The notes under the pieces: generated by a model
The model's input: only the letters and a program-made list of their open reading frames with translations
The model's database searches: none
Told to the model about the DNA's origin: nothing
Translations under genes and position numbers: made by a program
Source of the DNA: Hylemonella sp. UBA6679
GTDB taxonomy: Bacteria > Pseudomonadota > Gammaproteobacteria > Burkholderiales > Burkholderiaceae_C
Direction: 5' to 3'
Assembly (NCBI GenBank): GCA_002454975.1
Contig: DKJZ01000109.1
Coordinates: forward strand, 11,685 to 75,684
Length of the DNA stretch: 64,000 nt
Part shown: piece after piece, positions 1 to 18,228 of the stretch
Position numbering within the stretch: the first letter of the stretch is position 1
How the letters are laid out: each line of letters starts with the position of its first letter

Positions 1-10
1 CGCCCAGGCC

Positions 11-2179
11 TTGCTGAGCTCAGATGCTGCCCATGTGTCGTCTGTGTCTGTGCTTGATTCCAGTGCATCTATTGCAAGCAACCTTGATGAATTGCAAGCC
101 ATGGGCTCCAAGTTGAGCGCCATTACACAAGATGGCACGGCTGCCACTATGACTATCACGCGCTCGCAGATGCTTCTTGACGCTGCAGCTTTGGGCAAAG
201 TCACTAACGACTACACCATCAACTTGACTGATGCGACCGCTGCGCAAGCCCTGTCCTTGGCAACCGACTCCAAAGTGGTGAATGTTGCTGTAGTCGACAC
301 CGCAGCCAATATCTCTAAAAACTGGAGGGCCCTGTCGCAGCTGGGTACCAAGCTTGTCAGCGTGGACGTGAGCGATGATGACAATGCCCTCAACATCACT
401 GAGTCACAAATTGATGTGAGCGGTGCTGTCGTCTTGTTGATGCCTGACAACACCGTGTTTGTGAACAATGCATTGTCTGAACATGCCAGTGCCATTGCTG
501 AAAAATATCCAAATGCACGCATCAACGTAGTTGATACCGCATTGAGCATTGCTCAAAACTTTGGAACTTTGGCAGAGTTGAATGCCAATTCTGGCGTAGA
601 GAAACTCAACTCTATTCGAATTGGTGATGGTCAAACATTGGCACTGACAGCTGAACAATGGAGCCTGGGGGCTAAGGCTGTCGAGAAATTGGCTGGCAGC
701 TACAGTATCAGTGTGAGCGATGTTGCGGCTGCAGATGCCCAAGACGTGGCTGCTGCGGCCCATGTGTCAAGCCTGACTGTGAAAGACAGCAGTGCCAATG
801 TCTTCAGTCAACTGGCACAGCTTGAAAACCTGGCGGCCACAGGCAAGCTCACCAACATCGTTCTTGAAGACGATGATGTCATGCATCTGACCCAAGCCGA
901 ATACAACCAATATGCACACGCTTTGGGTCGTATCAAAGCCAACTTGAATCTCGATGTGACAGATGTTGCCGCAGCTGATGCCGATGACGTTGCTTCGAAC
1001 ACCGCCGTGGTGAGCCTGGCCGTCAAGGACACAGCGCAAAACATCACGGACAACCTCTTCGAGTTGCATGCGCTCGTAACCACCTTGAACAGCGTGGAAG
1101 TGACGGATAGCCAAGAAGTTCAAATGAGCTACGAGCAATACTTGGCCCGTGCAGACCTGATAGAAAAGATCACCGGTGGCACATTTGCTTTGACAGAAGC
1201 GCTTGTTAGCAGCTTGACGGCGCTTACCAGCGATGTAAAAGTCACACACTTCACTATCAATGGCAGCAGCAGTGACTTGGCGGGGCGTTGGGATGATTTG
1301 TTGGCAGCAGGTACGCAGCTCACAGCACTTACCCAGACTGGATTGCTAGCCACGATGTTCATCACCGCAGGTCAATATGCTGACAGTGTTGATTTGCTTG
1401 CTAAATTCACCGACACCTACAGCTTGTCTGTGAGTGGTGTTTTGGCTGGTGACGCAAAATCGCTGACAAATGCTGATGCCTTTGTTTCATCTGTGGCAGT
1501 CATTGGCACAGCACAACAAATCAGCACAAACCTGAACGATTTGTTAGACCTTGAAGACAAGCTGTTGAGTATCAGCCAAACTGGTTCGGCAGATGTTGCC
1601 GTGACAGCTTTGCAATATCAGGTTAATCCGCAGTTGTTGGGCCTCTTCAACACCCCAGTCAGCTTTGCAGTCAGCGATTTGTTGGCTAATGATGCCGTTT
1701 TGATCGGTAAGCAAACTGATGTGGCTCACTTCACGGTGTCTGACACGGCAGATAATGTTGCGCAGCAGCTCAATGATTTGCAGGGCATGGTTGACAAAGT
1801 GACGGGCATCACATTCACCGACGCTTCCCCAGTGTTGGTTGTTGATGCCTCCGATTGGTCGGCTGATGCCAATGTCGTTGCAAAAATTCAGTCGAATTAC
1901 GCTTTGAACTTGACGGGTGTCTTCGCTGGAGACGCCACTACCCTTGCTGGTCTATCTCTCCCCGCTAAAGCAACTGGTATTCAGTTGACGGTGTCAGACA
2001 GTGAACAAAATATCCTCAATAACCTGGCTGATCTGAACACCTTGGAATTGGCCGGTAAGCTGTCAGAAATTTCTGCGTCTGATACCCATGTGCTCAATGT
2101 CACAGCCCAAGAGGCTGCTGACTACAGTGCCGTCCTGGCCCGTCTGTCATCGCAAGACACCTACGAAATCACCGCTTAA
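11..2179 (+). CDS. C-terminal part of a large tandem-repeat protein (at least 9 divergent ~80-aa repeats); 5' end lies outside the window
   Basis: The reading frame stays open to the window edge. The signature V.S..V.D(S/T)..N(I/V)...L..L......L..I...D....(T/S)..Q recurs about every 80 aa. TAA at 2177-2179 is followed by a hairpin terminator. Confidence 0.75.
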   Translation: MLSSDAAHVSSVSVLDSSASIASNLDELQAMGSKLSAITQDGTAATMTITRSQMLLDAAALGKVTNDYTINLTDATAAQALSLATDSKVVNVAVVDTAANISKNWRALSQLGTKLVSVDVSDDDNALNITESQIDVSGAVVLLMPDNTVFVNNALSEHASAIAEKYPNARINVVDTALSIAQNFGTLAELNANSGVEKLNSIRIGDGQTLALTAEQWSLGAKAVEKLAGSYSISVSDVAAADAQDVAAAAHVSSLTVKDSSANVFSQLAQLENLAATGKLTNIVLEDDDVMHLTQAEYNQYAHALGRIKANLNLDVTDVAAADADDVASNTAVVSLAVKDTAQNITDNLFELHALVTTLNSVEVTDSQEVQMSYEQYLARADLIEKITGGTFALTEALVSSLTALTSDVKVTHFTINGSSSDLAGRWDDLLAAGTQLTALTQTGLLATMFITAGQYADSVDLLAKFTDTYSLSVSGVLAGDAKSLTNADAFVSSVAVIGTAQQISTNLNDLLDLEDKLLSISQTGSADVAVTALQYQVNPQLLGLFNTPVSFAVSDLLANDAVLIGKQTDVAHFTVSDTADNVAQQLNDLQGMVDKVTGITFTDASPVLVVDASDWSADANVVAKIQSNYALNLTGVFAGDATTLAGLSLPAKATGIQLTVSDSEQNILNNLADLNTLELAGKLSEISASDTHVLNVTAQEAADYSAVLARLSSQDTYEITA

Positions 2180-2218
2180 TCTGTTTGCTACTTGATTTCT
2201 ATCGTCTTTTGCCAGACC

Positions 2219-2247
2219 AAAAAAAACGGCCTTGAAGGCCGTTTTTT
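2219..2247. terminator. Bidirectional rho-independent terminator shared by two convergent repeat-protein genes
   Basis: AAAAAAAACGGCC-TTGAA-GGCCGTTTTTT: a perfect stem with an A-tract on one side and a T-tract on the other, between the stops at 2179 (+) and 2263 (-). Confidence 0.85.
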
Positions 2248-2262
2248 ACTGGCTGATTGGGA

Positions 2263-5200
2263 TCAGCTGGTCTTTGAGAAATCTGCTTTGAAGTAAACAG
2301 CACTGCCACTGTCAGTGACTTTATAGACCGAGTCAGCTGGCGCCGGCGAGTTCTGATCGTCCTTCATTGCTTGAGTCACCATCTCTAAAGACAAACCGGC
2401 AGCATCGCTTGGCACCCAAGTACTGCCACCATCGGTCAACGCTTTGCTGCTGTCCAATGGCTTGAGGCTGGTGCCCGATGCCAAATCTTTACCCACCAGG
2501 TAGTAGGTGTTGTTATCAATCTTGGCTTCGTACAAGCCGGCACTTGTGCTGCTTGAGGCAGTGATGGTGCTGCTGATGCTCAAACCAACGGTTCCGTCGC
2601 CATTCAGGTCGCGTTTTGCGGTTACTTCATCCACCAGCAAATCGGCACTGTCTTTGGATGCGGTGCTATCCAAACTCCATTGAGCGTTTGCGTTCTTAAA
2701 AAGATACGCTGTCGTCAAGATGGCGTTGTTATTTTCCGTATCCACTTTTTGTGCGTATACGGTGACTTCGTTTCCTGTCAGTGCTTCAACAATCGATTTA
2801 ACACTGTAATCAGCATCAGGTTTCCAGTAGCCGTTGGTGGCATTGCTGTCAAGCAGGGCAGCAGAGTTGGCGAGGTTATTACCCATTGTTCCCTTCGCGC
2901 TGAGGTTTTTGCCAACAATATAAATCTTGCTGTTTTCTGCATCACTTTCAACGCTTGCGTCTCCCAAGGCCCAACCGTTAGAGGCTTGTGTTGCAATGGA
3001 AGCGTTGCCCACTTTGAAGCCAATGCTGCTGTCGCCATTGAGGTCTTTTTTCGCATCAGCTTCGCGCGTAGCTAAATTGATGCCTGTGATGACGGCGTAA
3101 TCTGTGATGTTTCCATCTGGCGCAAGTTTTAAGGTGCCATCAGCTGCTGCAGAAAACTTGTAACGAACAATGTCTGTTCCAGCGCCATTTGACTTGGTGC
3201 CGAACACCTCAAAATCCTGTCCGGCAGGCTGGTAGGTGCCCTTGATTGTCACATCACTATCAACTGCCCATGGCCCTGTGCCGTCTGCATTCATCAACGC
3301 TTTGCTCAAGTCGATAGGCTTGTCAGTCAGGCTGCGCACCACCAAATAATCCTTGCCCAAAGCGCTGACGTTGATCAAACCTGTTGAACGGCTTGAATCT
3401 AGCAATTCAGAGGCTGCCACAAAACCTACCTTGGTATCTCCGTTCAGATCCTTTTTAGAGGCTTTTTCTGCAGTTGCTAGTTCAACAGCACTCACCAATT
3501 CACTGTTGCCGCCGTTACCGACTTTGCTGGTCGCCTTGTCAAAGGTGTATTTGAAAACATCGTTGCCATTCACTGTGTAAACAAACCGATCATTGCCGTT
3601 GGTCAGCACGGCTTTGATGGTTTCTCCAACGTTGGGGTTCCATGGGCCTGTTCCATCATCGTTGAGCAAGGCGTTACTCAATGAAAGTGGGGTGCCCTTG
3701 GTACCTGGCTGCAGGTTGTCGCCTACAAGCCAGTATTTTGTATTGCCAATCACTTTGGCTTCGGACACACCTTGGTAGGTGGCAGCGCCTTTAGCCAGTG
3801 CGTTGAAACCAATCGCGCCATCATTGTTGAAGTCACGACGTTGTGTGGCTTCTAAGCCCACCAACTCAACGGGATCTACCTCAACGGACTCTTGGAATTT
3901 GTGGTCGCTGTCAAATGTTGTTTTCAATACTGAGGTTTTCGCAGCGTTATAGCTAAAGACCATGAAGTCCGTACCACTTTTCACCATACCGGCAATCGTG
4001 TGGCCAGTTTCTGGTTTCCACGCTGTGGTGTCATCGTACATGAACGCCTTGTCCAGGCTCACGCCCGCGCTACCTGCTTTGCCAGATTTTAAATTCTGGC
4101 CTTCTACATAATAAGTTTGGCCCAACACACTGGCTTTGAACAAGCCCGTGACTCTGTCTGTGGTTTCATCAATTTTTGCACCGACAGCTGCATCGCCATC
4201 GACGTCTTTTTTCAGCAAATTCTCAACAGCGACCAGCTCTTCACTGCTGAGTTTTTCGACGTCTGAAGGTTCATAAACGCGATCGCTAGAAAACTTGTAG
4301 CGCATGACGTCGTTACCGGCTTTGGTGTAAACCTCAAAGCCCGTTCCGCCATCAGATTTCAGAACGCCTTTGAGTGTTTCAGTGGTTGACCAGGGGGTAG
4401 ATCCATCCTCTCCTAGCAAAGCTTTGTCACCTAACTTGGTGCCTTTGAGGGTGATGCTTTCTGCAACCAGAACCACGTTGTCGCTGCCAATAGAAGCTGT
4501 GTACAGGCCGGGTGTTCCCACAGCGCCTTTGGTGATGGTGGCTGTAACGTTAGCGCCTTTGAGCTTATCGCCGTTGATGTCACGACTGATGTCAACTTCA
4601 GCGTCTGCCAGTTCAACAGCGGTCAAGATTTTTCCGTTTGGATCTTCATCGGTATTTTCAAAAGAGGCATTGAAGGTGTTTTTGACATAAGTACCACCTG
4701 TCATACTGCTGTACACCTCATAGCCTCCACCTTGCATTTTGAACATGACCATCTTGTCGGTGGCCTTGTCAAAACCTTCTGGTCCTGTCCAAAATGTTCC
4801 GTCTGATAAACGCAAAGCTTGAGACAAATCCTTGGCACCTGTGAGTTTGTCGCTCACAACCAGATAGTCATCGCCCAGGGCTGTACCCCGATACAGTTTT
4901 CCAACCTTATCCACCTCCACCACATTCTTGAGGCCGATAGTGGTGTCACCATTCAAGTCTCTTTTCAGGGTCACCTCTGCCGCAGCCAAGGTTGCAGCAT
5001 CCAGGCTACCCGATTCATCGTCAATCAGCAGGTTGGTGGTTTTGTCAAATGTGTATTGCTTGACATCATTGGCATCTGTTTTGTTGACGGTGATGATCTT
5101 AAGCTTGTCGTTATCGTTCTTATCGATGTATGAAGCCTTGATGTCGTTAGCAGCATCAAGCGCCCAATAACCAGTGTCTGTTTTGAGTGCTTTGCTAAGG

Positions 5201-6591
5201 TCCACTGCCTTTTTGGCATCCTTACTGTCGAGGGTTAGTTTGATGTCGGAGCGCAGGAAGACTGGGTCTCCGCTATCAACTTTGGCGGTGTAAAGCACAT
5301 TACTTTTAGCATCCAAATTGCCTGTGATTCGTGCACCTATATAACCGTCGCCGGTGAGGTCGCGTCCTGCATCCTTCTCGGCGGTGGCCATTTCCTCTTT
5401 GGACATTTCTGTGCGGTCGGCTGTGAGCTTGTAATCCGCATCGAATTGGTACTTAGCAAAAACACCGTCAGTTTCTTTGGCGTAGATGTCAAATCCATTG
5501 ACGCCAGACACAACGCGCATCTGTTTGACGCCAGCAACCTCCGCAACAGACTCTGGTTGCCAAGCTTCGGTGCCATCTTCTGTTAAAAATGCCTGACCTA
5601 GACTTAAAGGCTTACTGGCAGAAGAAGTGAGACTTTTACCAGCAACAAAGTAAGTTGCTCCCAAAACTTCTGTTTGGTAAAGGCCACCATGCGCATCCAG
5701 AGCCTTGTTGACCTTGGCGCCAAAGTTACTGTCGTTGTTCAGGTCGCGCTTGTTGGTCGCCTCAATCAAGGCAAATTCTTTATGCGTGAGCGTTTTTGTG
5801 CCGTTGTTACCCAATTCCCAAGGCTCATTCAACGATGCTCGACTGAAGGTGTATTCGGTCACATCGCTGCTGGTAGATGTGCTGGCATAAATGCGCCAGT
5901 GATCGTCACCGTCGCTCGGGCCGATGGCCCTTAGGGTGGCGTTAGATTCATCAGGCGCCCAAAATGTACCGTCTGAATTGGTGAGTGCAGCAGCGGAGAT
6001 GTCAAAGGACTTGGCTGTAGCAAAGCTTGTGCTTACTGCATACACGTCTTGATCAGCCACAGACATGTGGAATAAGCCGTTTTCTGTATCGGTGTCGTTG
6101 CCATCTGCTTGCACTGACGCGCCAATTTTTGTGTTGCCATCAATGTCTCTGCCGGTGCTGACTTCACTTTTGGACAGTTCAAGCGTGTTAACGCTGATAG
6201 CAGTGTCAGACGTTGCAACCAAAGATTTGTTGTCGGCACTTGCAGCAAACGAATATTTTTCGGCTGTCTTCGCTCCCGTGTCATACACGTAAAGTGAAAA
6301 GCTCCCTGGTGCGCTGTTCGCCACCAAATTCAGACGTGTACTGCTGGGGTCGATAAAAAAGTTGGTTTCTCCGTCGCTCGCTTTTAAAAACATCACGCCC
6401 GACGTGGGGACCAAGCTGTTGCTCGAGAGTGATTTTTTTGAATAAAGCAGGGCGCCAGCTGTAGGTGTTGCGCCTTGCTCTTCATCAGGCAAAGTCGTAG
6501 CGTACAAGTAATCAGCTTTTGCGGTAGGCTGAATTTTGCTGATGACCCTGGGTGCAACAACCCATGCTGAACTCGATACGGCAGCGACCAT
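2263..6591 (-). CDS. 1442-aa repeat protein with about 10 modules, each carrying an EF-hand/dockerin-like (R/K)D(L/I/V)(N/D)GD..(I/V)G loop; no recognisable Sec signal, lipobox or RTX repeats
   Basis: Uninterrupted 4.3-kb ORF. AGGAG lies 6 nt before the ATG at 6591. Loops such as KRDLNGDGTVG, KKDLNGDSSIG, KRDLNGDTTIG, RRDFNNDGAIG and GRDLTGDGYIG recur about every 130 aa, with conserved W/Y positions (DGT.W.P, GLY.A...G..Y.V). Confidence 0.85.
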   Translation of the reverse strand: MVAAVSSSAWVVAPRVISKIQPTAKADYLYATTLPDEEQGATPTAGALLYSKKSLSSNSLVPTSGVMFLKASDGETNFFIDPSSTRLNLVANSAPGSFSLYVYDTGAKTAEKYSFAASADNKSLVATSDTAISVNTLELSKSEVSTGRDIDGNTKIGASVQADGNDTDTENGLFHMSVADQDVYAVSTSFATAKSFDISAAALTNSDGTFWAPDESNATLRAIGPSDGDDHWRIYASTSTSSDVTEYTFSRASLNEPWELGNNGTKTLTHKEFALIEATNKRDLNNDSNFGAKVNKALDAHGGLYQTEVLGATYFVAGKSLTSSASKPLSLGQAFLTEDGTEAWQPESVAEVAGVKQMRVVSGVNGFDIYAKETDGVFAKYQFDADYKLTADRTEMSKEEMATAEKDAGRDLTGDGYIGARITGNLDAKSNVLYTAKVDSGDPVFLRSDIKLTLDSKDAKKAVDLSKALKTDTGYWALDAANDIKASYIDKNDNDKLKIITVNKTDANDVKQYTFDKTTNLLIDDESGSLDAATLAAAEVTLKRDLNGDTTIGLKNVVEVDKVGKLYRGTALGDDYLVVSDKLTGAKDLSQALRLSDGTFWTGPEGFDKATDKMVMFKMQGGGYEVYSSMTGGTYVKNTFNASFENTDEDPNGKILTAVELADAEVDISRDINGDKLKGANVTATITKGAVGTPGLYTASIGSDNVVLVAESITLKGTKLGDKALLGEDGSTPWSTTETLKGVLKSDGGTGFEVYTKAGNDVMRYKFSSDRVYEPSDVEKLSSEELVAVENLLKKDVDGDAAVGAKIDETTDRVTGLFKASVLGQTYYVEGQNLKSGKAGSAGVSLDKAFMYDDTTAWKPETGHTIAGMVKSGTDFMVFSYNAAKTSVLKTTFDSDHKFQESVEVDPVELVGLEATQRRDFNNDGAIGFNALAKGAATYQGVSEAKVIGNTKYWLVGDNLQPGTKGTPLSLSNALLNDDGTGPWNPNVGETIKAVLTNGNDRFVYTVNGNDVFKYTFDKATSKVGNGGNSELVSAVELATAEKASKKDLNGDTKVGFVAASELLDSSRSTGLINVSALGKDYLVVRSLTDKPIDLSKALMNADGTGPWAVDSDVTIKGTYQPAGQDFEVFGTKSNGAGTDIVRYKFSAAADGTLKLAPDGNITDYAVITGINLATREADAKKDLNGDSSIGFKVGNASIATQASNGWALGDASVESDAENSKIYIVGKNLSAKGTMGNNLANSAALLDSNATNGYWKPDADYSVKSIVEALTGNEVTVYAQKVDTENNNAILTTAYLFKNANAQWSLDSTASKDSADLLVDEVTAKRDLNGDGTVGLSISSTITASSSTSAGLYEAKIDNNTYYLVGKDLASGTSLKPLDSSKALTDGGSTWVPSDAAGLSLEMVTQAMKDDQNSPAPADSVYKVTDSGSAVYFKADFSKTS

Positions 6592-6649
6592 GTCCTACTC
6601 CTAATCTTGGTGCACCCCGCCCAAGGCAGGGTTTTCACGTGCTCACCAT

Positions 6650-6676
6650 GATTCGGCTTGACCTTGAAATACTTGA
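6650..6676 (-). promoter_or_regulatory. FliA (sigma-28)-type promoter upstream of the 1442-aa repeat protein gene
   Basis: The minus strand reads TCAAGTAT-N11-GCCGAATC. The -10 element ends 59 nt upstream of the ATG at 6591. The same bipartite motif and spacing occur at five other sites in this window. Confidence 0.65.
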
Positions 6677-6959
6677 ACCGCGTTGACCGCTTTTCGTTAA
6701 TCGACTTCCACGCCGCAGTCTTTTGCCGTGAGACTGACTCTGGGCTTATGCGAACCAACACCACCAGCCCGTACACACACCGGTGGTGTATTGGATGGCC
6801 AGGTCAATCAGCGTGCCCAGTGCGAGCAAGGGCAGACCCAGGTAAACCAAGGCCCACACCACGGCCATGAGGGTAGGGCGCGGCTCAGGAATGCGTCGCC
6901 CCATGACGGTTTGAACCGGTGCTCGTTGAAGAAATTTCCAAGACATAGGGCGGCTGGCT

Positions 6960-7913
6960 GTGACTTTGTTTTCGACTATTCTATGGTCCATGCGCACGCT
7001 CTGGAACCCTGATCAAGCCAGCACTTGGGATGCCGCCCACACCCAGGCAGGAGCCTCGCTGCAGCAAGACTGGGCCTACGGCGCCACCATGAAAATGCTG
7101 GGCGTGGGGGTGCAACGTGTCGTGGTTGAGCAAGACGGTACCCCTGTGGCCCTGGCACAGTTCATCCTGCGATGCTGGGGAGGGTTTGCTGCGGTGGTGT
7201 TGTGCTCTCGCGGCCCGGTGTGGCTGACAGACCTTGACGCCGCTGACAAGCGGCGCTGTTACCGTGCCATCAAACAAAGCCTGCCTTTGAGGGGGCTCAA
7301 GCTTCATGTGGTCACACCAGGTGAGCAGTACGGCTCCTCTTTGGGTTTGTCGCCCTTGCGCCGTGTGGTCACCGGGGCATCTACAGTCATGCTTGACCTT
7401 CAGCTTCCTGAAGGCGAACTGCGCGCTAACCTCGAAGGCAATTGGCGTAACCAGTTGCAAGCCGCAGAAAACGCCGAGTTGAAGGTTGTCAAAATGGCGT
7501 CCAACCCTGGGGCCTATCGTTGGTTGTTAGACGCTGAACTCAAGCAGCGTGTGTCGCGCGGTTTAGACGGCTTGCCACCGCAGTTCTTCGATGTTTATTT
7601 GCACGCCCGCAAGAACCCGGCTGCCACCACCTTGGGCTTACGGGTCGACTTGGGTAAAACGCCAGCTGCAGGCATGGTCTTTTTGATCCATGGCAGCGTG
7701 GCGACTTACCAAGTGGGTTGGAGCAATGACGAGGGCCGTAAGACACGCGCCAACAACTTGCTGTTGTGGCGTGCCCTACAAGAACTCAAGGCCCGTGGCA
7801 TTGCGTGGCTCGACCTGGGTGGCATCAATACCCAGCGCAGTGCTGGCCTGGCCCGTTTCAAGATGGGCACCGGTGGCCAAGTTCAAACCCTGGCCGGTAC
7901 TTACCTGCTTTGA
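6960..7913 (+). CDS. FemAB-like / GNAT (Acetyltransf_6-like) family protein
   Basis: 317-aa ORF with a GTG start at 6960 (alternative ATG at 6990). The C-terminal region YQVGWSNDEGRKTRANNLLLWRALQELKARGIAWLDLGG resembles FemAB-type peptidyl/acyl transferases, recalled from family knowledge. Confidence 0.55.
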   Translation: MTLFSTILWSMRTLWNPDQASTWDAAHTQAGASLQQDWAYGATMKMLGVGVQRVVVEQDGTPVALAQFILRCWGGFAAVVLCSRGPVWLTDLDAADKRRCYRAIKQSLPLRGLKLHVVTPGEQYGSSLGLSPLRRVVTGASTVMLDLQLPEGELRANLEGNWRNQLQAAENAELKVVKMASNPGAYRWLLDAELKQRVSRGLDGLPPQFFDVYLHARKNPAATTLGLRVDLGKTPAAGMVFLIHGSVATYQVGWSNDEGRKTRANNLLLWRALQELKARGIAWLDLGGINTQRSAGLARFKMGTGGQVQTLAGTYLL

Positions 7914-7934
7914 CGCTGAGTGGGTTAGAACCTC

Positions 7935-9197
7935 TCAGTTGGCCATGATTTGGCGATCATTGAGAGGTTGCAGTGGTCGCGCGTTCATTTTGAAGGGGAA
8001 GGCGCTGACTTGCTCGCGTGAGATGTTCACCAAAGAGCGCAAGATATAGAACTTGACTTTTTCTGTGCAGGGTGGGGTGGTGAGCGAGCCATCGTAGTGG
8101 TAGAACTCCAGCTCACGCGGCAGCAGGTTGGCAGGGTTGAAAGCCACACTCTCAGGTTGCACCTCAGGGCCTTCTTTTTGTGGCGCATGCTCCCACAAGG
8201 TTCTGATGCCTGGGTTTTCATTGCCAATCTGTAACAACACGCCCAACACAGCCAGTTCGCCTGCGTCGTTCTTGTGCACAAAGTGAATCACCATGGCTTG
8301 GCGCTTGCCATTCAACGCCTCTTCGCTGGGCCGATGAAAGTGATATTGCAGCAACTCATAAGCGACCCCGTCGATGCGCAATTTACTCCCCGGATTCACA
8401 TTGACCTGAATGGTGTGGCCGTTGTTGATGATGCGTAAGGGTCCCACCTTGTAATCAGGTGCAATGCTGAACCGCACTTTTTGAAACGGGCCCTTGATGT
8501 CCAGAGGCGATTGCTCTTTGCCACGGCCACATTTAGGAAATTCTTTGCCCCAGTTTTCTGGGCCCATCAGGCCTTCATAGTCCCAGTGGACCGCATGCTT
8601 ATCGCCTTTTTTGTCGCCCTTCTTTTCACCATGCTCATCCTTCTTGCTACCAGGGCTGTCTTTGGGCAGTGCTTCTTGGCCGTCGGGTTTAACCGGTGCT
8701 GTTGGCATGGCACATTCAGACAGCGGTTTGACAGGTTTACCGGCTGCTGCCAACGCATATTGGGCAGCGCAAATCACCTTTTGCTGGCGCGACCAGTCGG
8801 TCATCTCAAGTGCTTTTTCAAAAGCGCTCACCGTGCTGGGATCTTGCCCTCCTTTGGTCAGAAGACGCACGCCAGCCAGGCCCAGCACGCGCTCTGCCGA
8901 CAATTTTTTGTCCTTGGCGTAAGCGGCCTCCAGGTCTTCCAAGGTGACGCCGCTGCTCAGCGCAGCTTTGACCGCTTCCATCTGCTGGGCGGTGACCTGC
9001 AAGGGGGCTAGCTTTTCTTTGGTCTCAGTCAGTTCTTTCTCAGCAGCCTCTTGTTTTTTCTCGGTGGCGGAGACTTTGGCTGAGAGTTCAGAGATTTCCG
9101 CCTTGGCGCCAGCACCGGCCTTCCACTGCATGAACGCAAAGCCGCCAGCGCCCAGGGCAGCCAGCAGAAGAACAACAATGGCTATGGTTTTTTTCAT
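7935..9197 (-). CDS. Alpha-class carbonic anhydrase with a ~200-aa N-terminal membrane anchor, coiled coil and lysine-rich linker
   Basis: The C-terminal half carries alpha-CA hallmarks: HWDYEG..GPENWG, SPLDI, NNGHTIQV, QYHFHRPSEE, VIHFVH, YDGSLTTPPCTE. The N-terminus is MKKTIAIVVLLLAALGAGGFAF, followed by a heptad-like E/K-rich stretch. Confidence 0.85.
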   Translation of the reverse strand: MKKTIAIVVLLLAALGAGGFAFMQWKAGAGAKAEISELSAKVSATEKKQEAAEKELTETKEKLAPLQVTAQQMEAVKAALSSGVTLEDLEAAYAKDKKLSAERVLGLAGVRLLTKGGQDPSTVSAFEKALEMTDWSRQQKVICAAQYALAAAGKPVKPLSECAMPTAPVKPDGQEALPKDSPGSKKDEHGEKKGDKKGDKHAVHWDYEGLMGPENWGKEFPKCGRGKEQSPLDIKGPFQKVRFSIAPDYKVGPLRIINNGHTIQVNVNPGSKLRIDGVAYELLQYHFHRPSEEALNGKRQAMVIHFVHKNDAGELAVLGVLLQIGNENPGIRTLWEHAPQKEGPEVQPESVAFNPANLLPRELEFYHYDGSLTTPPCTEKVKFYILRSLVNISREQVSAFPFKMNARPLQPLNDRQIMAN

Positions 9198-9251
9198 GGT
9201 GAGTGACTTGTAATTAGCTCAGTAATAGGCTCGACACGAGTTCTGAAAACT

Positions 9252-10067
9252 TTATTGGAAGCTTGTACTTTTGAAAGAAAACCCTTGACCTTTTTTGGGG
9301 CCGCTGGTTTTGATGGCCAAAAAATAAAGCGTTTTAGGTGAGCTGGTTATGACTGCAATACCAGTCATCGTGAAAGTGAACACATCAGGATTGGCTTCAG
9401 AGAATTGGCATCCACCTAGCGCAGCTAATTGCAAACTCACGTTGAAAACGTTGATTTGAGACGATGGCGTGAAGGTGACGTTCGAAATTGCACATGAAGT
9501 GAAATTAAAGTCTGCCGCAGAACCTGAGTTGCCATTGATGCTAAAGACAATATCTTTATTGGGAATTACAGCAATGTTCCCATGGGAAATTTCACCAGTC
9601 CAAGTACCTTGTAAATCAGCCAATTGTGATGTGGTGGTGAGCGCATTGAGTGAGGCGCTGACATTTTTCCCTGGATCAGCGCCTGACTGCAAAATATTGA
9701 CGTTTGTTGAAATGCTGGTTGAGGTGGGTGCGCTCATGCTGCCTGAGCCGCTGTGTAGAGGTTTTGCGTTTGACGGAAAATAAACCAACTCGCCAGTTGC
9801 TGCTGACGGTGCAGAAGACCCCACGCCACTGAACTTGCCGCTGTAGAGGTCTGCGTTATTTGTTGGGTAGTGCAGCGAATACCAGTTGGTCGCAACGGTG
9901 TCCGGCAGAAGCACGGTCAGCCATTGCCCTCCATCCACAGTTCCGCTGTAAACCCCCGGGCTCACATTCAAAGGCGTGCTGCTTGAGCTGCCGCCCCCGC
10001 CACAACCAGCCAGTCCCAATGTCAGTGCCAGCAAGCAGCTGGTGATCAGTGTCTGTAAGCACGGCAT
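9252..10067 (-). CDS. Hypothetical lipoprotein
   Basis: The lipobox LGLAGC follows a hydrophobic N-terminus (MPCLQTLITSCLLALTLGLAGCGGGG). I trimmed the track ORF (ends 10115) to this Met. Ser/Thr/Asn-rich, and visibly lower G+C than its neighbours. Confidence 0.6.
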   Translation of the reverse strand: MPCLQTLITSCLLALTLGLAGCGGGGSSSSTPLNVSPGVYSGTVDGGQWLTVLLPDTVATNWYSLHYPTNNADLYSGKFSGVGSSAPSAATGELVYFPSNAKPLHSGSGSMSAPTSTSISTNVNILQSGADPGKNVSASLNALTTTSQLADLQGTWTGEISHGNIAVIPNKDIVFSINGNSGSAADFNFTSCAISNVTFTPSSQINVFNVSLQLAALGGCQFSEANPDVFTFTMTGIAVITSSPKTLYFLAIKTSGPKKGQGFSFKSTSFQ

Positions 10068-10102
10068 GTTGCTAATCCTGGTTTTTAATTTATATTGCGT
10101 GC

Positions 10103-10504
10103 ATGAAACGCACACGCCAAATCGCCATTCTGACCGCTCTTGCGGGGCTCACTGTCACGCATGCGCCGCTCGCTGTTGCCGACGTGAAAGCCATTGGCTC
10201 GAGTGACAACGCCGTTTACTACGTCGATACCGACACCCTCAAACGTACCGGAGACGTCCGCACGTTTTGGTCGATCATGGACTACAAAAAAACCCAAACC
10301 ACCTCGCGTGGGGCATCTTATTTGTCCACCCGTACCAACATGGAAATCAACTGCAAAGACCAGACGGTGCTGATGCGGCAGTTCAGCATGCACAGCGGCG
10401 CGATGGCTAAAGGCGATGTGCTCGACACGCAAGGTATTTTGCGTGACGCGCAAGCCATACCACCCGGTACCCCGTTGTTCAACATCATGCGGGCGGTTTG
10501 CTAA
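10103..10504 (+). CDS. Small secreted protein, possibly surface-adhesin-E-like
   Basis: Signal peptide MKRTRQIAILTALAGLTVTHAPLAVA. The body (YYVDTDTLKRTGDVRTFWSIMDY...EINCKDQT) resembles the protein-E-like family from memory; the function is uncertain. Confidence 0.5.
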   Translation: MKRTRQIAILTALAGLTVTHAPLAVADVKAIGSSDNAVYYVDTDTLKRTGDVRTFWSIMDYKKTQTTSRGASYLSTRTNMEINCKDQTVLMRQFSMHSGAMAKGDVLDTQGILRDAQAIPPGTPLFNIMRAVC

Positions 10505-10506
10505 TT

Positions 10507-10965
10507 TCATGACAAGCGGCGCTGGTTGAACTGCATCACGCCCAGCTCGTCCATCCGTCTCTGCTCTTGCAGGTTGTTTTGTCGTCGCATGTCGCGTTCA
10601 TTTTGTTCAGCCAGTGACTGCATTTTGATGCGCTCTTTTTCAACCACCAACAGCCGCTCGCGGTAGCCATCCAACAAGTTGCTGGTATGCAAGATGTCTT
10701 TCGAGACGCGCTCAAGCAACGTGAGCAGCTGCGCCATGAACTGGCGCTGGCTCATCGCCTCACGCATACCTTGTGAGCTGCTGCCTGGTCGGTTGAGCTG
10801 CTCGCAATATTCCTGGTACATCTGCTGGACCCGGTCGCGGCTGGCTTGCAGCTTGGCCAAGCGGTGTCGGGTTTGTGTCATTTCTTGATGGATCAAGTCC
10901 AGTTCGTCTTGCGCCTTGTGCGCCAGCAAGTTCCAGCAAGGGCGTGCGACCACTGGTGTGTTCAT
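10507..10965 (-). CDS. fliJ: Flagellar export chaperone-like protein FliJ
   Basis: 152-aa coiled-coil protein immediately downstream of fliI, overlapping it by 4 nt. Typical size, position and composition. Confidence 0.75.
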   Translation of the reverse strand: MNTPVVARPCWNLLAHKAQDELDLIHQEMTQTRHRLAKLQASRDRVQQMYQEYCEQLNRPGSSSQGMREAMSQRQFMAQLLTLLERVSKDILHTSNLLDGYRERLLVVEKERIKMQSLAEQNERDMRRQNNLQEQRRMDELGVMQFNQRRLS

Positions 10966-12293
10966 GACAGCATCTCTCGCAAATGTGCACGGGTACTTTG
11001 CTCGTCTTCACATGCATGCATGTCTTGACGTAAAAACACCTCAAGGCTCTCTCGCAGGCGTATGGCCTCGTCAAGTTGTGGGTTGCTGCCGGCTTCGTAG
11101 GCACCCACCTGAATCAAGTCTTGGTTTTGTTGGTAGAGCGACCACAAGCGCCGGCATTTATTGGCCAGCTTCAGGTCTTCGGGGGGCAGCAGGTTTTGCA
11201 TAACCCGTGAGATCGAGCCGTTCAAATCGATGGCAGGGTAATGGGCGGCATCGGCGAGTTTGCGCGAGAGCATCACTTGGCCGTCTAGCGATGCACGGGC
11301 AATGTCCACAATTGGATCGTTGGCGTCGTCGCCTTCTGCCAGCACAGTGTAAATCGCGGTGATGGAGCCGTGGCCATGCCGTCCAACCCCTGCTCGCTCA
11401 ATCAAGCTGGGCAACAGCGCAAACACCGATGGCGGATAGCCTTTGGCGGTGGGCGGTTCGCCAATCGCCAAGCCAATTTCTCGTTGGGCATGGGCCACAC
11501 GCGTGAGGCTGTCCACCAGCATCAGCACATTCAAGCCTTGATCGCGGAAATACTCAGCCACCAAGTGCGTCATGTGGGCCGACTTCAAACGCAGCACGGG
11601 CGATACATTGGCCGGTGCGGCAATCACCACCGACTTGGCCAGGCCCTCAGGGCCTAAAGATTCTTGAATGAAGGCTTGCACCTCGCGGCCGCGTTCGCCA
11701 ATCAGGCCAATCACCACCACATCGGCCTTGGTAAAGCGGGCCATCATGCCCAGCAACACACTTTTTCCCACGCCAGAGCCAGCGACCAAGCCAACGCGTT
11801 GGCCACGACCCAGGGTCATCATGCCGTTGATGGCTTTCACGCCCACGTCCAGCACCCGGTCTATCGGACCGCGCTCCATGGGGTTCAAAGGCAAACCCAG
11901 CAAACTCAGACGTGTGTCGCACTGGGGCTTGGGCAAACCGTCCAGCGGCTCGCCACGGCCATCCAACACGCGGCCCAAAAGTTCAGGGCCTAGGCACACA
12001 CTGCCCATGTCTTTGATCACCCGAACGGTGGCGCCAGGGGCCACACCTACCGGGTCGGTCAGGGGCATGAGGTACAGGGTTTTGTCATTGAAGCCCACCA
12101 CCTCGGCTTCGATGGTCTGGCCGTCTTGGGTGCTGATGTCGCAGCATGACCCAATCGGTGCCATGATGCCGCGCGCCTCTAAACGCAAACCCACCAGCCG
12201 CACCAAGGTGCCACAGCGCTCGGGCCGGGGGGCGTTGAGTTGTGGCAACTGCCGCGCCACCTCCATGGCAAAGTCAGTCTGCATGGTCCTCAC
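10962..12293 (-). CDS. fliI: Flagellum-specific ATPase FliI
   Basis: Walker A motif GSGVGKSVLLGMM and F1/T3SS-ATPase-like sequence throughout. GTG start at 12293, or ATG at 12284. Confidence 0.95.
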   Translation of the reverse strand: MRTMQTDFAMEVARQLPQLNAPRPERCGTLVRLVGLRLEARGIMAPIGSCCDISTQDGQTIEAEVVGFNDKTLYLMPLTDPVGVAPGATVRVIKDMGSVCLGPELLGRVLDGRGEPLDGLPKPQCDTRLSLLGLPLNPMERGPIDRVLDVGVKAINGMMTLGRGQRVGLVAGSGVGKSVLLGMMARFTKADVVVIGLIGERGREVQAFIQESLGPEGLAKSVVIAAPANVSPVLRLKSAHMTHLVAEYFRDQGLNVLMLVDSLTRVAHAQREIGLAIGEPPTAKGYPPSVFALLPSLIERAGVGRHGHGSITAIYTVLAEGDDANDPIVDIARASLDGQVMLSRKLADAAHYPAIDLNGSISRVMQNLLPPEDLKLANKCRRLWSLYQQNQDLIQVGAYEAGSNPQLDEAIRLRESLEVFLRQDMHACEDEQSTRAHLREMLS

Positions 12294-13344
12294 CCGTCGA
12301 CTCAGGTGGTGGCTCTGATCGATCCGAGGCTTCCAAGTCTTCTGCGCTGGCCATGGGTTCTTCTATGGAACCTGTAGCAGTAATGCCTTCTGTATCAAGG
12401 GTTCCAGGCCTAATTCCAGGTATGCCAACAGCGACAAATGTCGGTTTGGGCATGGCGTCTTGCACCGCTGCCGCTTGGCTACGCGCTTGCAAACGTTGCG
12501 GTTCAAACAGACTTTGGGCTTGCCAGCGTTGGGGCTCAAGCAGTAGCGTGGTAGCCATGGCCGACAAACGATGTTCGACCAAGTCGCTCACCACGGCATC
12601 ATCGGCCGTGACCCTGACGCTGCCAGGCAGCAGGTCGACATGGGCTTGCAGGCGCCAAGAACTTGGCATCTCTTGCCCAAGTCGACTTTGCAACAAGGCC
12701 AAATCATCGGGGTTGAGGTCTACCACCACTTGGCTCGAAGCTGGCACATCCAGTGTTTCAAGGCAACGTTCAATCAAGCGCTGAGTGCCCGTAGGGTCAA
12801 TGGTGAGTTCGGTGAGCACCAGTTGCTCTGCCAAGTGCACAGCCAAACGTTTCAGTGGCTCGTAGCGCAGGGCAGGGTGTTCGTGCAGCCCTTCAATGCT
12901 GGCCTGAATTTTTTCAAGCAAGGTGTGTGTGTGCTGGGCCAGTTGTGCCTCTGAGTCCGCTTGACGAAGCGCCTGGTCTTCAGCTTGTTGCGCCAGTTGC
13001 AACTCACGCCCTTCGGCCAAGCCGCGCTCATAGGCCAGTTGTCGGATCGCTTCGATTTCATCGTCATGCAAGCCTGCATGGACGGGTGCGCTGCCACTGT
13101 TCTCGTCTGACCTGTCATGTCCTGGGTGGAGGTTGTCCTGTGCTGCAGCGATGGGAGCAAGCGCGCTGAGACTTTTGTAAGTTGAGCGCGTGAAGTGAGA
13201 AGTTTGCCCTGTACCGTCTTGCACCCGAACAAAGCCTTTGTTTTCCAACACTTTGAGAGACGGCAGAGGCTGCCAGATGGCCGTCTCTTTGGGGCCGTGT
13301 TGATGGGCTGGCGCCATCAGAGTCTTAGACAAAGTCTGCTCCAC
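12274..13344 (-). CDS. fliH: Flagellar assembly protein FliH (long form)
   Basis: Lies between fliG and fliI. Central charged/coiled-coil region and a C-terminal FliH-like domain. Start is GTG at 13344 or ATG at 13317. Confidence 0.75.
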   Translation of the reverse strand: MEQTLSKTLMAPAHQHGPKETAIWQPLPSLKVLENKGFVRVQDGTGQTSHFTRSTYKSLSALAPIAAAQDNLHPGHDRSDENSGSAPVHAGLHDDEIEAIRQLAYERGLAEGRELQLAQQAEDQALRQADSEAQLAQHTHTLLEKIQASIEGLHEHPALRYEPLKRLAVHLAEQLVLTELTIDPTGTQRLIERCLETLDVPASSQVVVDLNPDDLALLQSRLGQEMPSSWRLQAHVDLLPGSVRVTADDAVVSDLVEHRLSAMATTLLLEPQRWQAQSLFEPQRLQARSQAAAVQDAMPKPTFVAVGIPGIRPGTLDTEGITATGSIEEPMASAEDLEASDRSEPPPESTGEDHAD

Positions 13345-14377: not shown

Positions 14378-14387
14378 GGTCTATCCT

Positions 14388-16232: not shown

Positions 16233-16261
16233 AGGATGGGTCTTTCTTGTTGTTGGTCAGC

Positions 16262-16606
16262 TCACACCGGCATATTCAAAATATCTTCGTAGGCCTTGAG
16301 CACCTTGTTGCGCACCTGCAAGGTGGCTTCAAAGGCAATCGAGGATTTCTGCATGTTGAGCACCACATCGGTCAGCGGTACGCCCTCACCACGCTCGTAG
16401 GCGTTGATGGTTTGCGCAGATTTGTTTTGCAACTCATTGACACTCTTTAAGCTACTTTTGATGGCATCACTGAAACTGTTGGTACTCTGAACTTGTCCGT
16501 CCAGGCTCGCACCCATGTCCCCCATGCCTTGGCTGGCCGTCGCTTGGTAGGCGCGGATGGTTTGCAACATGGACTGGATGTTGATTTGCGAATTGATGCG
16601 TTCCAT
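16262..16606 (-). CDS. fliE: Flagellar hook-basal body complex protein FliE
   Basis: 114 aa; the C-terminus LQVRNKVLKAYEDILNMPV is typical of FliE. Confidence 0.9.
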   Translation of the reverse strand: MERINSQINIQSMLQTIRAYQATASQGMGDMGASLDGQVQSTNSFSDAIKSSLKSVNELQNKSAQTINAYERGEGVPLTDVVLNMQKSSIAFEATLQVRNKVLKAYEDILNMPV

Positions 16607-16620
16607 GGAGGGTCTCCTGA

Positions 16621-18168: not shown

Positions 18169-18209
18169 GTCGGGCCTTGCCTTGTCTGCATGTCAATGCA
18201 TGACGATGT

Positions 18210-18224
18210 GCAAAACCCGTGCCA
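18210..18224 (-). promoter_or_regulatory. Sigma-54 promoter of the FleQ-like gene
   Basis: The minus strand reads TGGCAC-GGGTT-TTGC. Predicted TSS is about 18198, 30 nt before the ATG at 18168. Confidence 0.7.
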
Positions 18225-18228
18225 AGCG

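Follow-up and report, generated by a model that had tools for sequence, protein, structure and literature searches.

A freshwater member of the Comamonadaceae encodes, in the window (the whole 64-kb stretch of DNA analysed), a protein of 1442 aa (giant A) that probably represents a novel component associated with the flagellum, secreted or exposed at the surface, since its family is uncharacterised (all public annotations read 'hypothetical protein') and is nearly always encoded in flagellin loci, downstream of a conserved sigma-28 promoter. Sequence comparison gives good support for the membership of its gene in the FliA regulon.

The minus strand at 6676-6650 reads TCAAGTAT-TTCAAGGTCAA-GCCGAATC, i.e. 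a −35-like element (TCAAGTAT, 6676-6669) and a −10-like element (GCCGAATC, 6657-6650) separated by an 11-nt spacer. The motif ends 59 nt (6650 to 6591) from the start codon, and an AGGAG ribosome-binding site (6602-6598) is placed 6 nt 5′ of the ATG. The motif, its distance and the ribosome-binding site had been proposed in an earlier, sequence-only reading of this DNA, and all were confirmed in the window sequence. Transcription is predicted to start at about 6643-6641. The hairpin predicted in the putative 5′ leader did not exceed shuffled sequence in folding (z −0.57), and no sigma-70-like site was found in the intergenic region 5′ of the gene. The core of the motif, TCAAG-N16-CGAATC, has five exact matches in the whole window, and nine matches were observed with up to one mismatch (1.13 expected in 64 kb), a count reached in none of 100 shuffles. 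The sister sites claimed for flgM, fliS, the flgP-like operon and the short flagellin were all recovered, the last of these with one mismatch (Table 1).

Table 1. Features of the giant A region and FliA-type sites elsewhere in the window
Feature	Position	Strand	Remarks
Giant B, C-terminal 722 aa	11..2179	+	Convergent with giant A
Bidirectional intrinsic terminator	2220..2247		AAAAAAACGGCC-TTGAA-GGCCGTTTTTT; between two convergent giant genes
ORF of giant A, 1442 aa	2263..6591	-	Start ATG 6591
Ten tandem modules, ~125-145 aa each	2266..6222	-	HMM: 10 full modules
Modules 1-5	aa 124-256, 257-384, 385-518, 519-644, 645-769		
Modules 6-10	aa 770-893, 894-1021, 1022-1156, 1157-1301, 1302-1442		
N-terminal region, aa 1-123	6223..6591	-	HMM, AF2 model
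Region between −10 element and ATG	6592..6649	-	~50 nt of it a putative 5′ leader
Sigma-28 (FliA)-type promoter (predicted)	6650..6676	-	Window sequence, sister sites, conservation in 13/13 loci
66-aa hydrophobic ORF	6746..6946	-	Directly upstream of promoter
FemAB/Acetyltransf_6 family gene	6960..7913	+	Divergent
Site before 273-aa flagellin	23378-23404	-	One mismatch; gene by Pfam
Site before flaG	23930-23956	-	One mismatch; gene by Pfam
Site before flgM-flgN	39527-39553	+	Exact; gene by Pfam
Site before LPP20/flgP-like operon	44133-44159	-	Exact; gene by Pfam
fliA	59483-60235		In window
Site before fliS	60258-60284	+	Exact; gene by Pfam

Giant A and its homologues, the latter all from metagenomes or metagenome-assembled genomes (MAGs), span 1442-2695 aa. 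A sigma-28-type motif was present upstream of the gene in all 13 homologous loci examined, from 92% down to ~29% protein identity, and it is retained while its spacer and flanks diverge. In the window and 11 loci (L001, L008, L009, L012, L013, L014, L016, L018, L020, L021, L022; the motif of L020 was read by eye and its −10 element has one deviation), its 5′ end lies 72-97 nt ahead of the start codon; in L007 it is at −54 from the annotated start, i.e. −84 from Met11. The pattern has a background density of 8.4e-5 per nt-strand, a figure that counts in the true sites, and its chance occurrence in the 26-nt span is thus about 0.002 per locus.

Analysis of the gene context revealed that 10/13 loci carry flagellin, flaG, fliS, fliD, FliB or flagellin-glycosylation genes. 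Flagellin genes flank the homologue in L014/L015, L016 and L022; it lies directly 3′ of a flagellin gene and terminator in L009 and L012, and adjoins flagellin-flaG-fliS-fliS in L020, FliB_C in L008, and TPR/GT41, methyltransferase and ATP-grasp genes in L009, L016 and L018. Together with the conserved motif, this context gives strong in silico support to the wiring into the late FliA regulon that had been claimed, and FliA dependence in vivo is to be expected. In the window itself, five non-flagellar genes separate the giant A gene from fliJ.

The terminator that follows the gene has a folding z of −4.5 (none of 200 shuffles folded as well) and, since it is bidirectional and lies between convergent giants, the giant A gene is monocistronic. 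The convergent giant B consists of ~80-aa repeats (full length about 2121 aa in L001) and has no signal peptide and no Pfam match. It partners a giant A family gene in 6/13 loci, and in L001, L007 and L008 it is preceded by sigma-28-like motifs.

Giant A is acidic (pI 4.63), contains no cysteine, is composed of Ser and Thr to 18.7%, and has no sequence match in Pfam, NCBIfam or PDB. A short Ser-rich (Ser/Thr-rich) leader, of which aa 1-7 are disordered in the AF2 model, is followed by an all-beta N-domain lacking a Ca loop and conserved across the family; this domain matches the module HMM weakly, over its second half only and in homologues only. The AF2 model of the N-terminal region (me76e52706050) reached a pLDDT of 88.2 and a pTM of 0.83. 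The remainder agrees with the proposed array of about ten ~130-aa Ca-loop modules: it contains 10 loops (aa 149, 282, 410, 544, 670, 795, 919, 1047, 1182, 1327), and the HMM delimits 10 full modules. In each module a helix is followed by a (R/K)D(L/I/V)(N/D)GD..(I/V)G loop, which may bind calcium, and then by beta strands that carry an invariant Trp; module 7 was modelled by AF2 with a pLDDT of 91.9. As to the conserved Trp/Tyr positions that had been noted, a single Trp is nearly invariant, and so are several positions with aromatic or aliphatic residues.

A profile of the family modules retrieved bona fide W_rich_C (PF07483) proteins (E 1e-37 to 1e-18), and the module is thus, by profile comparison, a remote W_rich_C relative below the Pfam threshold. 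The Pfam W_rich_C HMM matched neither giant A nor any of 81 modules, and P0002 has only a 'faint' precomputed match. The suggested link to a Trp-rich family reflects real homology, albeit remote and under the Pfam threshold; the structural side of the search gave no convincing match in PDB. Both kinds of module have a DLNGDG-type loop and then a beta region with a conserved Trp, whereas the period is about 130 aa in giant A and 105 aa in W_rich_C. In W_rich_C relatives the repeats occur in fusion with RTX, serralysin, Big_5 and beta-helix domains, and no flagellar link has been reported for W_rich_C proteins. The assignment of a dockerin or EF-hand domain, also suggested earlier, found no support beyond the DxDxDG-type loop.

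The start codon is the first after an in-frame stop, so there is no upstream extension that could hide a signal peptide. Judged on sequence features only, giant A has no recognisable Sec signal: its start lacks a basic n-region and its hydrophobic stretch is weak and interrupted by Ser. A lipobox is impossible because the protein has no cysteine, the GGxGxD nonapeptide is absent, and no autotransporter domain was detected, since there is no Pfam or NCBIfam match whatever; none of the four was recognised, in agreement with the sequence-only reading. Recognisable signal peptides are lacking in all of about 27 family representatives, which have 0-1 Cys, a pI of 4.2-4.9, Ser+Thr of 15-22%, and 0-1 GGxGxD each, consistent with chance; most homologues have no hydrophobic N-terminus. 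At the N-terminus the family is conserved, and many members start with M-x-[IV]-S-x-[LIF]-N-T-[ST], which resembles the MxxVINTN of flagellins. Giant A itself begins MVAAVSSSAWVV..., without the NT[ST] signature, and is modelled as beta strands from residue 10, with no D0-like helix. The C-terminus varies, being replaced in P0011-P0013 by He_PIG extensions, Ig-like domains that are characteristic of surface proteins. Neither the scanned ORFs of the 64-kb window nor the 13 loci, of which the largest span 24-28 kb, contained an ABC, HlyD, MFP or TolC gene.

We infer that giant A is extracellular, as the domains fused to its W_rich_C relatives and the He_PIG extensions within the family suggest, that it leaves the cell by the flagellar type III or a type I route, and that it serves as a filament coat, sheath or adhesin. 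The reading we prefer, with a probability of about 0.45, combines a late FliA-dependent gene, Sec-independent export and a Ca-folded fibre acting on the filament. The gene would be a monocistronic class III unit dependent on FliA/sigma-28 and activated with flagellin, FlaG, FliS and FlgM after completion of the hook-basal body. In the low-calcium cytoplasm giant A would stay unfolded or loosely folded, and its Sec-independent exit would most probably proceed through the flagellar type III export gate, with giant A as a late substrate. Calcium binding outside the cell would then fold it into a long multi-domain fibre acting at or with the filament as a coat, a sheath component or a flagellum-deployed adhesin. 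Neighbouring genes for glycosylation or acyl-transfer enzymes may provide for its modification, and it may cooperate with the co-conserved giant B. The size of the family proteins, the missing NT[ST] of giant A and its beta rather than D0-like N-terminus speak against type III export, and the five genes intervening before fliJ also speak against the preferred reading. We know of no flagellar type III substrate as large as these proteins of 1442-2695 aa.

The earlier statement that no such flagellar component has been described holds for the giant A family, but analogues exist in FrhA and the sheath glycoprotein of MO-1. Giant or enzymatic flagellins (such as the Bermanella giant flagellin and flagellinolysin) have large extra domains delivered with the filament, as giant A would be, a place in the flagellin locus and sigma-28 control; they possess the D0/D1 helices of Flagellin_N and Flagellin_C, whereas giant A has neither and is predicted to begin with beta structure instead of a helix. 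The known non-flagellar substrates of the flagellar type III system (Cia proteins, FlaC and FedA-D/FspA of C. jejuni, YplA of Yersinia) are small to medium-sized (under 100 kDa) and have no calcium-loop repeat arrays, whereas the export of giant A is putative. Such substrates are described as having an N-terminal export determinant, no Sec signal and co-expression with late flagellar genes (PMC2764114). The frhA gene of V. cholerae is a class 4 gene with decreased expression in flrA, flrBC and fliA mutants (PMC6890996), and its product is reported to be exported by type I secretion and to combine RTX and Ig-like/cadherin-type repeats with ligand-binding domains (PMC10865825, PMC10523503). Giant A resembles this RTX adhesin (flagellar-regulated hemagglutinin A) in being giant, repetitive, free of a Sec signal and linked to the flagellar hierarchy; FrhA is Ca-dependent and extracellular, as giant A would be. 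The giant A family differs in having no RTX repeats, a W_rich_C-like module and a location between flagellin genes; frhA is not encoded in a flagellin locus. The flagellar sheath of Magnetococcus massalia MO-1 is composed of a >350-kDa glycoprotein, Sap, with calcium-dependent assembly (PMC7175107), and the Sap gene has been noted (PMC5088516). Compared by description only, Sap is similarly very large, linked to the flagellar apparatus and set in a glycosylation context; the MO-1 sheath encloses a bundle of seven flagella.

The type I route is a serious alternative because the W_rich_C superfamily is shared with RTX/serralysin proteins and a metalloprotease with an RTX-like motif is encoded in L022, and we regard it as less likely than the preferred reading. 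Giant A would in this case be an FrhA-like adhesin transcribed by sigma-28 and exported through a C-terminal signal by an ABC/MFP/TolC system encoded elsewhere, and would remain, calcium-stabilised, at the cell surface or in the surrounding medium without being physically attached to the filament. Type I substrates are usually giant, acidic and free of Cys and have Ca-binding repeats but no signal peptide, and giant A shows this profile, with putative Ca-binding repeats. Its module, moreover, is a remote homologue of W_rich_C repeats, and these are found together with HemolysinCabind, Peptidase_M10_C and Peptidase_M10 or M8 domains; in L022 the next gene downstream codes for a zinc metalloprotease that lacks a signal peptide and has an RTX-like GGAGSD close to its C-terminus, and frhA is a precedent within the V. 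cholerae flagellar hierarchy (PMC6890996). However, GGxGxD stays at chance level, exporter genes are absent from the scanned regions, it is the N-terminus and not the C-terminus that is conserved, and tight embedding between flagellin genes would be unexpected for a merely co-regulated adhesin.

A proteinaceous sheath or coat subunit, exported by any route and assembling around the filament in dependence on calcium, either alone or with giant B, overlaps the functional part of the preferred reading; as a separate explanation it seems improbable. The MO-1 glycoprotein offers a precedent (PMC7175107), and one Ca loop per module, the Ser+Thr content of 15-22%, the position inside flagellin loci, the glycosyltransferase and methyltransferase neighbours and the second giant partner are consistent with it, although the likeness to Sap is one of description, not of sequence comparison. 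We consider it very improbable that the promoter-like motif is fortuitous or non-functional and that an ordinary surface protein gene lies near the flagellar cluster by chance. The distance of five genes from fliJ, the carbonic anhydrase, Adhesin_E-like and FemAB-like neighbours in the window, and a GC content that is lower in the giant genes (0.49-0.51) than in the flagellar genes (0.54-0.59) would fit this explanation; the exact matches, the shuffle result and retention of the motif in 13/13 loci argue against it.

The 66-aa hydrophobic ORF has called counterparts in L001-L003 but none in L007, and its membership of the giant A system is uncertain. The FemAB/Acetyltransf_6 neighbour is conserved in the window, in L001-L006 and in L007, and its product is possibly a modification enzyme.

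The gene for giant A, a 1442-aa protein built of modules with calcium-type loops, very probably belongs to the late flagellar regulon governed by FliA (sigma-28), judging from its promoter region and those of its homologues. The sequence-only reading had proposed this link on the basis of a sigma-28-like motif with a downstream AGGAG ribosome binding site, and had placed the same motif before flgM, fliS, the short flagellin gene and the flgP-like operon. Our analysis confirmed the promoter, with 59 nt between the end of the -10-like element and the ATG codon, and retrieved all of the shared sites, that of the flagellin gene with one mismatch (see the table below). The E. coli sigma-28 consensus is TAAAGTTT-N11-GCCGATAA; the promoter fits the corresponding T(A/C)AAG...-N11-GCCGA(T/A)A type and is plausibly spaced from the start codon. 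The core of the motif (TCAAG-N16-CGAATC) has five exact matches in the 64-kb window and, with up to one mismatch, nine matches versus 1.13 expected, a number reached by none of 100 shuffled sequences. The identities of the genes behind the motif sites were confirmed with Pfam, and fliA is also present in the window. One exact site, located within another ORF, may be an internal late promoter; it lies upstream of a 305-aa coiled-coil-like ORF (45467-46384) of unassigned function.

No sigma-70-like promoter was found in the intergenic region upstream of giant A, and a strong bidirectional terminator closes the gene, which makes this a monocistronic unit consisting of the promoter, a leader of ~50 nt, the ORF and the terminator. 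A longer N-terminus is impossible, since the ORF already uses the first start codon that follows an in-frame stop. The 5' leader folds no better than shuffled sequence, and a regulatory hairpin there was rejected. The GC content of both giant genes of the window, i.e. giant A and the convergent giant B, is 0.49-0.51, versus 0.54-0.59 in the adjacent flagellar genes (positions 1-7000 and 7000-16000, respectively), which could reflect amino-acid composition or horizontal acquisition of the two genes as a pair.

A sigma-28-type motif was detected in all 13 homologous loci (the window counted), with its 5' end at -72 to -97 from the start codon; in L007 the motif at -54 from the annotated start is at -84 from Met11, which was used as the start. 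The two boxes and their distance from the start are kept across the loci, while the spacers and flanks diverge. The density of the motif pattern in nine scanned loci was 8.4e-5 per nt-strand, true sites included, so a chance hit within a 26-nt span is expected in ~0.2% of loci. The assignment to the FliA regulon is strongly supported in silico by the motif shared within the window and by its presence in every locus, and appears to extend to the whole family.

Features of the window and of the homologous loci (L001-L022); identity is that of the encoded giant A homologue to the window protein
Locus	Feature	Position	Strand	Sequence or remark	Identity
Window	giant A ORF	6591-2263	-	1442 aa; ATG at 6591
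Window	sigma-28-type promoter of giant A	6676-6650	-	TCAAGTAT-TTCAAGGTCAA-GCCGAATC (= TCAAGTAT-N11-GCCGAATC)	100%
Window	RBS of giant A	6602-6598	-	AGGAG
Window	strong bidirectional terminator	2220-2247		closes giant A gene
Window	exact core site	39527-39553	+	before flgM-flgN
Window	exact core site	60258-60284	+	before fliS
Window	exact core site	44133-44159	-	before LPP20/flgP-like operon
Window	exact core site	46538-46564	-	within ORF 46384-46926 (-)
Window	one-mismatch core site	23378-23404	-	before 273-aa flagellin
Window	one-mismatch core site	23930-23956	-	before flaG
Window	fliA	59483-60235
Window	giant B	11-2179	+	C-terminal 722 aa
L001	giant B	14394-20759	-	full length
L007	giant B	5779-12123	-	full length
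L008	giant B	184-4446		full length
L012	giant B	13733-15193		cut
L013	giant B	5760-9305		full length
L001	giant A promoter			TCAAGTAT-N11-GCCGAATC	92%
L007	giant A promoter			TCAAGTAT-N11-ACCGAATC	57%
L008	giant A promoter			TCAAGCTT-N11-GTCGATTC; second site further upstream	40%
L009	giant A promoter			TCAAGTTA-N11-GTCGATCT	29%
L012	giant A promoter			TCAAGATA-N11-GACGAATC	33%
L013	giant A promoter			TAAAGTTT-N11-ACCGAATC	34%
L014/L015	giant A promoter			TAAAGTTT-N11-GTCGATTC	32%
L016	giant A promoter			TCAAGTTC-N11-GCCGATTC
L018	giant A promoter			TCAAGTTA-N11-GACGATGC
L020	giant A promoter			TCAAGTCC-N11-GCCGACTA; read by eye, one deviation in -10 element
L021	giant A promoter			TCAAGTTT-N11-GCCGATAT
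L022	giant A promoter			TAAAGTTG-N11-GCCGATTC

Of the 13 loci, ten have a flagellar neighbourhood. Directly upstream of giant A there is a flagellin gene with a terminator in L009, L012, L014/L015, L016 and L022, and a flagellin gene lies downstream in L014, L016 and L022. A flagellin-flaG-fliS-fliS cluster is divergent to giant A in L020, FliB_C is encoded downstream in L008, and the fliE-fliJ operon is five genes away in both the window and L001. Loci L009, L016 and L018 contain TPR/GT41, GT1/GT2, methyltransferase, ATP-grasp and LicD genes such as occur in flagellin-glycosylation islands. The gene order in a Limnohabitans MAG (L022) is flgF...flgL-fliD-flaG-flagellin-GIANT-891 aa-flagellin-TPR-flagellin-fleQ-fliE-fliF, and the flagellar backbone of the window is the same without the giant insert; the giant gene occupies a different position in these otherwise similar clusters.

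Several other neighbours were recorded. The two FliS paralogues of L020 (111-533 and 645-1238, both minus strand; 140 and 197 aa) adjoin flaG, flagellin and the giant gene, and the extra copy could be a dedicated chaperone of the giant protein. A FemAB/Acetyltransf_6 gene is a conserved divergent neighbour (window 6960-7913, plus strand; L001-L006; L007 298-1212, minus strand), whose product may be an enzyme that modifies the giant protein or flagellin. Between this gene and the sigma-28 promoter of the window lies an ORF for a hydrophobic 66-aa polypeptide with Cys and Trp (6746-6946, minus strand), which is called as a gene in L001-L003, is missing in L007 and has no family match. An alpha (eukaryotic-type) carbonic anhydrase is also encoded near the giant gene (window 7935-9197, minus strand), with an N-terminal extension of ~200 aa in the window clade, and immediately upstream of it in the 34%-identity lineage (L013 2-664), and is thus a recurrent neighbour.

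The sequence-only reading had described about ten modules of ~130 aa with a calcium-type loop and conserved Trp residues, and the detailed analysis agrees with this description. There are ten loops fitting [RK]D[LIVF][NDT][GN]D..[IV]G, at aa 149, 282, 410, 544, 670, 795, 919, 1047, 1182 and 1327, and they delimit ten modules in tandem, each of 125-145 aa. Residues ~1-123 comprise a short Ser-rich leader and a loop-less domain that resembles the second half of the module alone. AlphaFold2 modelling of module 7 from an 81-module alignment (pLDDT 91.9, pTM 0.82) predicted a helix, the loop and then five beta strands, and a Foldseek search of the PDB with this model revealed no analogue (best E 0.089, top-ranked TM 0.26). 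The model of residues 1-265 (pLDDT 88.2, pTM 0.83) is disordered at 1-7 only and has an all-beta N-domain; its weak, low-TM (0.25) matches to beta-propeller enzymes (paraoxonase, GH43) are read as local blade-like beta-meander similarity and not as a fold assignment. The EF-hand/dockerin likeness noted earlier holds for the DxDxDG-type loop and for the helix that precedes it in the model, but not at the domain level: the best EF-hand evidence was EF-hand_5 at E 0.25 in one of 81 modules, and membership of these families was rejected because the loop alone matches, with no paired EF-hand or duplicated F-hand.

Searches with the whole protein against Pfam and NCBIfam, and sequence searches of the PDB (phmmer and profile), returned no matches. 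Thirteen relatives (100% to 29% identity, 1436-2510 aa) were identified among 5.8 billion proteins by a word-indexed search, and an exhaustive search with the module profile detected 445 proteins at E<=1e-3, 39 of them at E<=1e-30. The full-length family members number about 27 among the cluster representatives, with 10-19 modules each, 0-1 Cys per 1400-2700 residues and a pI of 4.2-4.9; judging from sequence features, they have no RTX block (0-1 GGxGxD each) and no recognisable signal peptide. The nearest genome is that of a Comamonadaceae MAG encoding the 92% relative (the sole match in a scan of genome contigs), and one cluster comes from Limnohabitans sp. (WP_414012959.1). The family is named only 'hypothetical protein' in public records, and literature searches on W_rich_C/PF07483, on Limnohabitans flagellar proteins and on flagellin-island giants yielded no description of it.

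The suggestion of a Trp-rich domain was borne out in part, as remote W_rich_C homology at the profile level, but giant A is below the Pfam threshold (gathering threshold of PF07483, 26.2 bits), and neither the whole protein nor any of the 81 modules searched separately gave a match at E<=1. The family-module (A1) profile matched, at E 1e-37 to 1e-18, the proteins P0060, P0072, P0080, P0085 and P0087, which are W_rich_C proteins by Pfam, with 4-9 repeats. Since this profile matches W_rich_C proteins and the Pfam HMM misses the target, the module belongs to the W_rich_C superfamily as a divergent branch outside the reach of the Pfam model. The W_rich_C proteins among the weaker hits are often fused to RTX, serralysin-type/M8 peptidases, Big_5 or beta-helix domains.

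Sequence features and Pfam revealed no Sec signal, lipobox Cys or C-terminal beta-barrel in giant A. There is a weak, Ser-interrupted hydrophobic stretch at residues 2-20 and no other (maximum 19-residue hydropathy 1.2), and the first 8 residues contain no Lys or Arg, i.e. the basic n-region is absent. The protein (pI 4.63, Ser+Thr 18.7%) has no Cys, no GGxGxD and no autotransporter match in Pfam, and the earlier statement that it lacks a Sec signal, lipobox, RTX repeats and an autotransporter end still stands. We rejected its classification as (i) a lipoprotein (no Cys), (ii) an autotransporter (no beta-domain match), (iii) an RTX adhesin of the LapA, FrhA or MpIBP type (no GGxGxDxUx nonapeptides and no HemolysinCabind match) and (iv) a giant flagellin (no Flagellin_N/C domains and a beta N-terminus). 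Axial-protein domains (Flagellin_N/C, Flg_bb_rod/Flg_bbr_C) gave no Pfam match.

An extracellular location of giant A is suggested by the Cys-free acidic composition and the DxDxDG-type loop of each module, as well as by the He_PIG extensions of some members and the secreted-protein partners of W_rich_C. According to the reading that we prefer, to which we assign a probability of roughly 0.45, giant A would be expressed late in a FliA-dependent manner, would leave the cell independently of Sec, most likely through the flagellar gate, would fold with calcium outside the cell, and would form a coat, a sheath or an adhesive fibre at the filament. Export by the flagellar type III route is favoured by the consistent placement of the gene among late substrates and their chaperones, by the absence of RTX repeats and of type I genes in any locus, and by a conserved N-terminus whose first residues, in many members, are like those of flagellin or hook-associated proteins, combined with a variable C-terminus. 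The Ser/Thr-rich N-terminus is kept across the family, and 11 of 23 representatives (the window protein lacks this signature) carry the tripeptide N[TI][STN] within their first 14 residues, as part of an M-x-[IV]-S-x-[LIF]-N-T-[ST] start like the flagellin MxxVINTN. The C-terminus of giant A is the end of its last module, where He_PIG domains stand in the family members P0011-P0013.

This route is disfavoured by the unprecedented size of the protein, by the type I features of the superfamily and by the RTX-like tail of a metalloprotease encoded next to giant A in L022; the last two would fit type I secretion of the FrhA kind (FrhA is a flagellar-regulated adhesin of V. cholerae). Type I secretion signals have no reliable sequence signature. 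Giant A has no RTX block, and ABC/MFP/TolC genes were absent from the scanned ORFs of the 64-kb window and of all 13 loci, which is a weak argument, as such genes may be unlinked. Type I export is a serious alternative, somewhat less probable than the flagellar route.

Three known systems are functional analogues of giant A: (i) FrhA, a giant adhesin whose expression is subject to the flagellar hierarchy (PMC6890996), (ii) Sap, the >350-kDa calcium-dependent sheath glycoprotein of Magnetococcus massalia MO-1 (PMC7175107; PMC5088516), and (iii) the non-flagellar proteins of C. jejuni exported by the flagellum (PMC2764114). Giant A differs from RTX adhesins, flagellins, EF-hand/dockerin proteins and Pfam-defined W_rich_C in the features tested, and is a remote relative of the last of these. 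As a giant, probably extracellular protein linked to the flagellar regulon it is of a known kind; its module family, the logic of its flagellin loci and its conserved partner are new.

This partner, giant B, adjoins giant A in six loci (the window, L001, L007, L008, L012 and L013). It has 1181-2121 aa, is rich in Ala, Ser, Leu and Thr, and has no signal peptide and no Pfam match; its repeats of ~80 aa are of the type V.V.D[ST]..N[ILV]...L..L...I..I...D...L.L[TS]..Q. Giant B is not a diverged copy of giant A, as the module HMM fails to match it, and it has its own upstream sigma-28-like motifs in L001, L007 and L008. In L022, 39 nt past giant A, lies a gene (16222-18897, plus strand) for a signal-less, Cys-free protein of 891 aa. 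It carries a repeat of the giant-B type at its N-terminus, a zinc metalloprotease domain (Peptidase_M10, 25.4 bits) and, close to its C-terminus, an RTX-like GGAGSD. Since the giant-B head also heads this metalloprotease, it looks like a portable module on varied cargo. A third type of signal-less repeat protein, with [ST]..Q[IL]..L repeats and a FliD-like N-terminus (MTTISSLGS), is encoded in the same flagellin/glycosylation islands (L009 10728-12686, 652 aa; L016 21824-24181, 785 aa; both plus strand), with sigma-28-like motifs ~115-120 nt upstream of both genes.

Tentatively, these signal-less, cysteine-free giants of freshwater, Limnohabitans-like Comamonadaceae, a dedicated set that their flagellin loci may encode and that would comprise giant A, giant B, the giant-B-head metalloprotease and the ST..Q-repeat proteins, could be late type III substrates that form a calcium-assembled filament sheath, hairs or adhesive fibres. 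If so, they would constitute a previously unrecognised class of non-axial structural cargo of the flagellum and would far exceed all known type III substrates in size. Late flagellar regulons are generally regarded as almost completely catalogued (flagellin, cap, chaperones, FlgM, motor and chemotaxis proteins). A conserved family of 150-280-kDa calcium-loop proteins, encoded amid flagellin genes behind a sigma-28 promoter of its own in every lineage examined, suggests that the flagellum of abundant freshwater bacteria has an accessory layer that has gone unrecognised. Passage of giant A through the flagellar channel would raise the known size limit of type III export and offer a natural model of how secretion is coupled to calcium-driven folding. 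A filament coat would bear on protein sheaths, adhesion by flagella, susceptibility to flagellotropic phages and the resistance of planktonic bacteria to grazing. The orphan W_rich_C superfamily would gain its first biological context, with a module structure that is predicted confidently and has no PDB match.

The flagellar cluster of the window has several further features. It contains two sigma-54 activators (16621-18168, minus strand; 44269-45465, plus strand), of which one is FleQ-like (515 aa) and the other (398 aa) has no receiver-domain Pfam match, as well as two FliK-like (Flg_hook) proteins (40617-41702 and 53631-55142, both minus strand). FlgK (26488-29232; 914 aa) and FlgE (33181-35910; 909 aa), both encoded on the minus strand, are unusually large. 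The two flagellins (18297-20234 and 22501-23322, both minus strand) are very different, with 645 and 273 aa, and a 155-aa TPR protein is encoded between them, as is also the case in L016 and L022.
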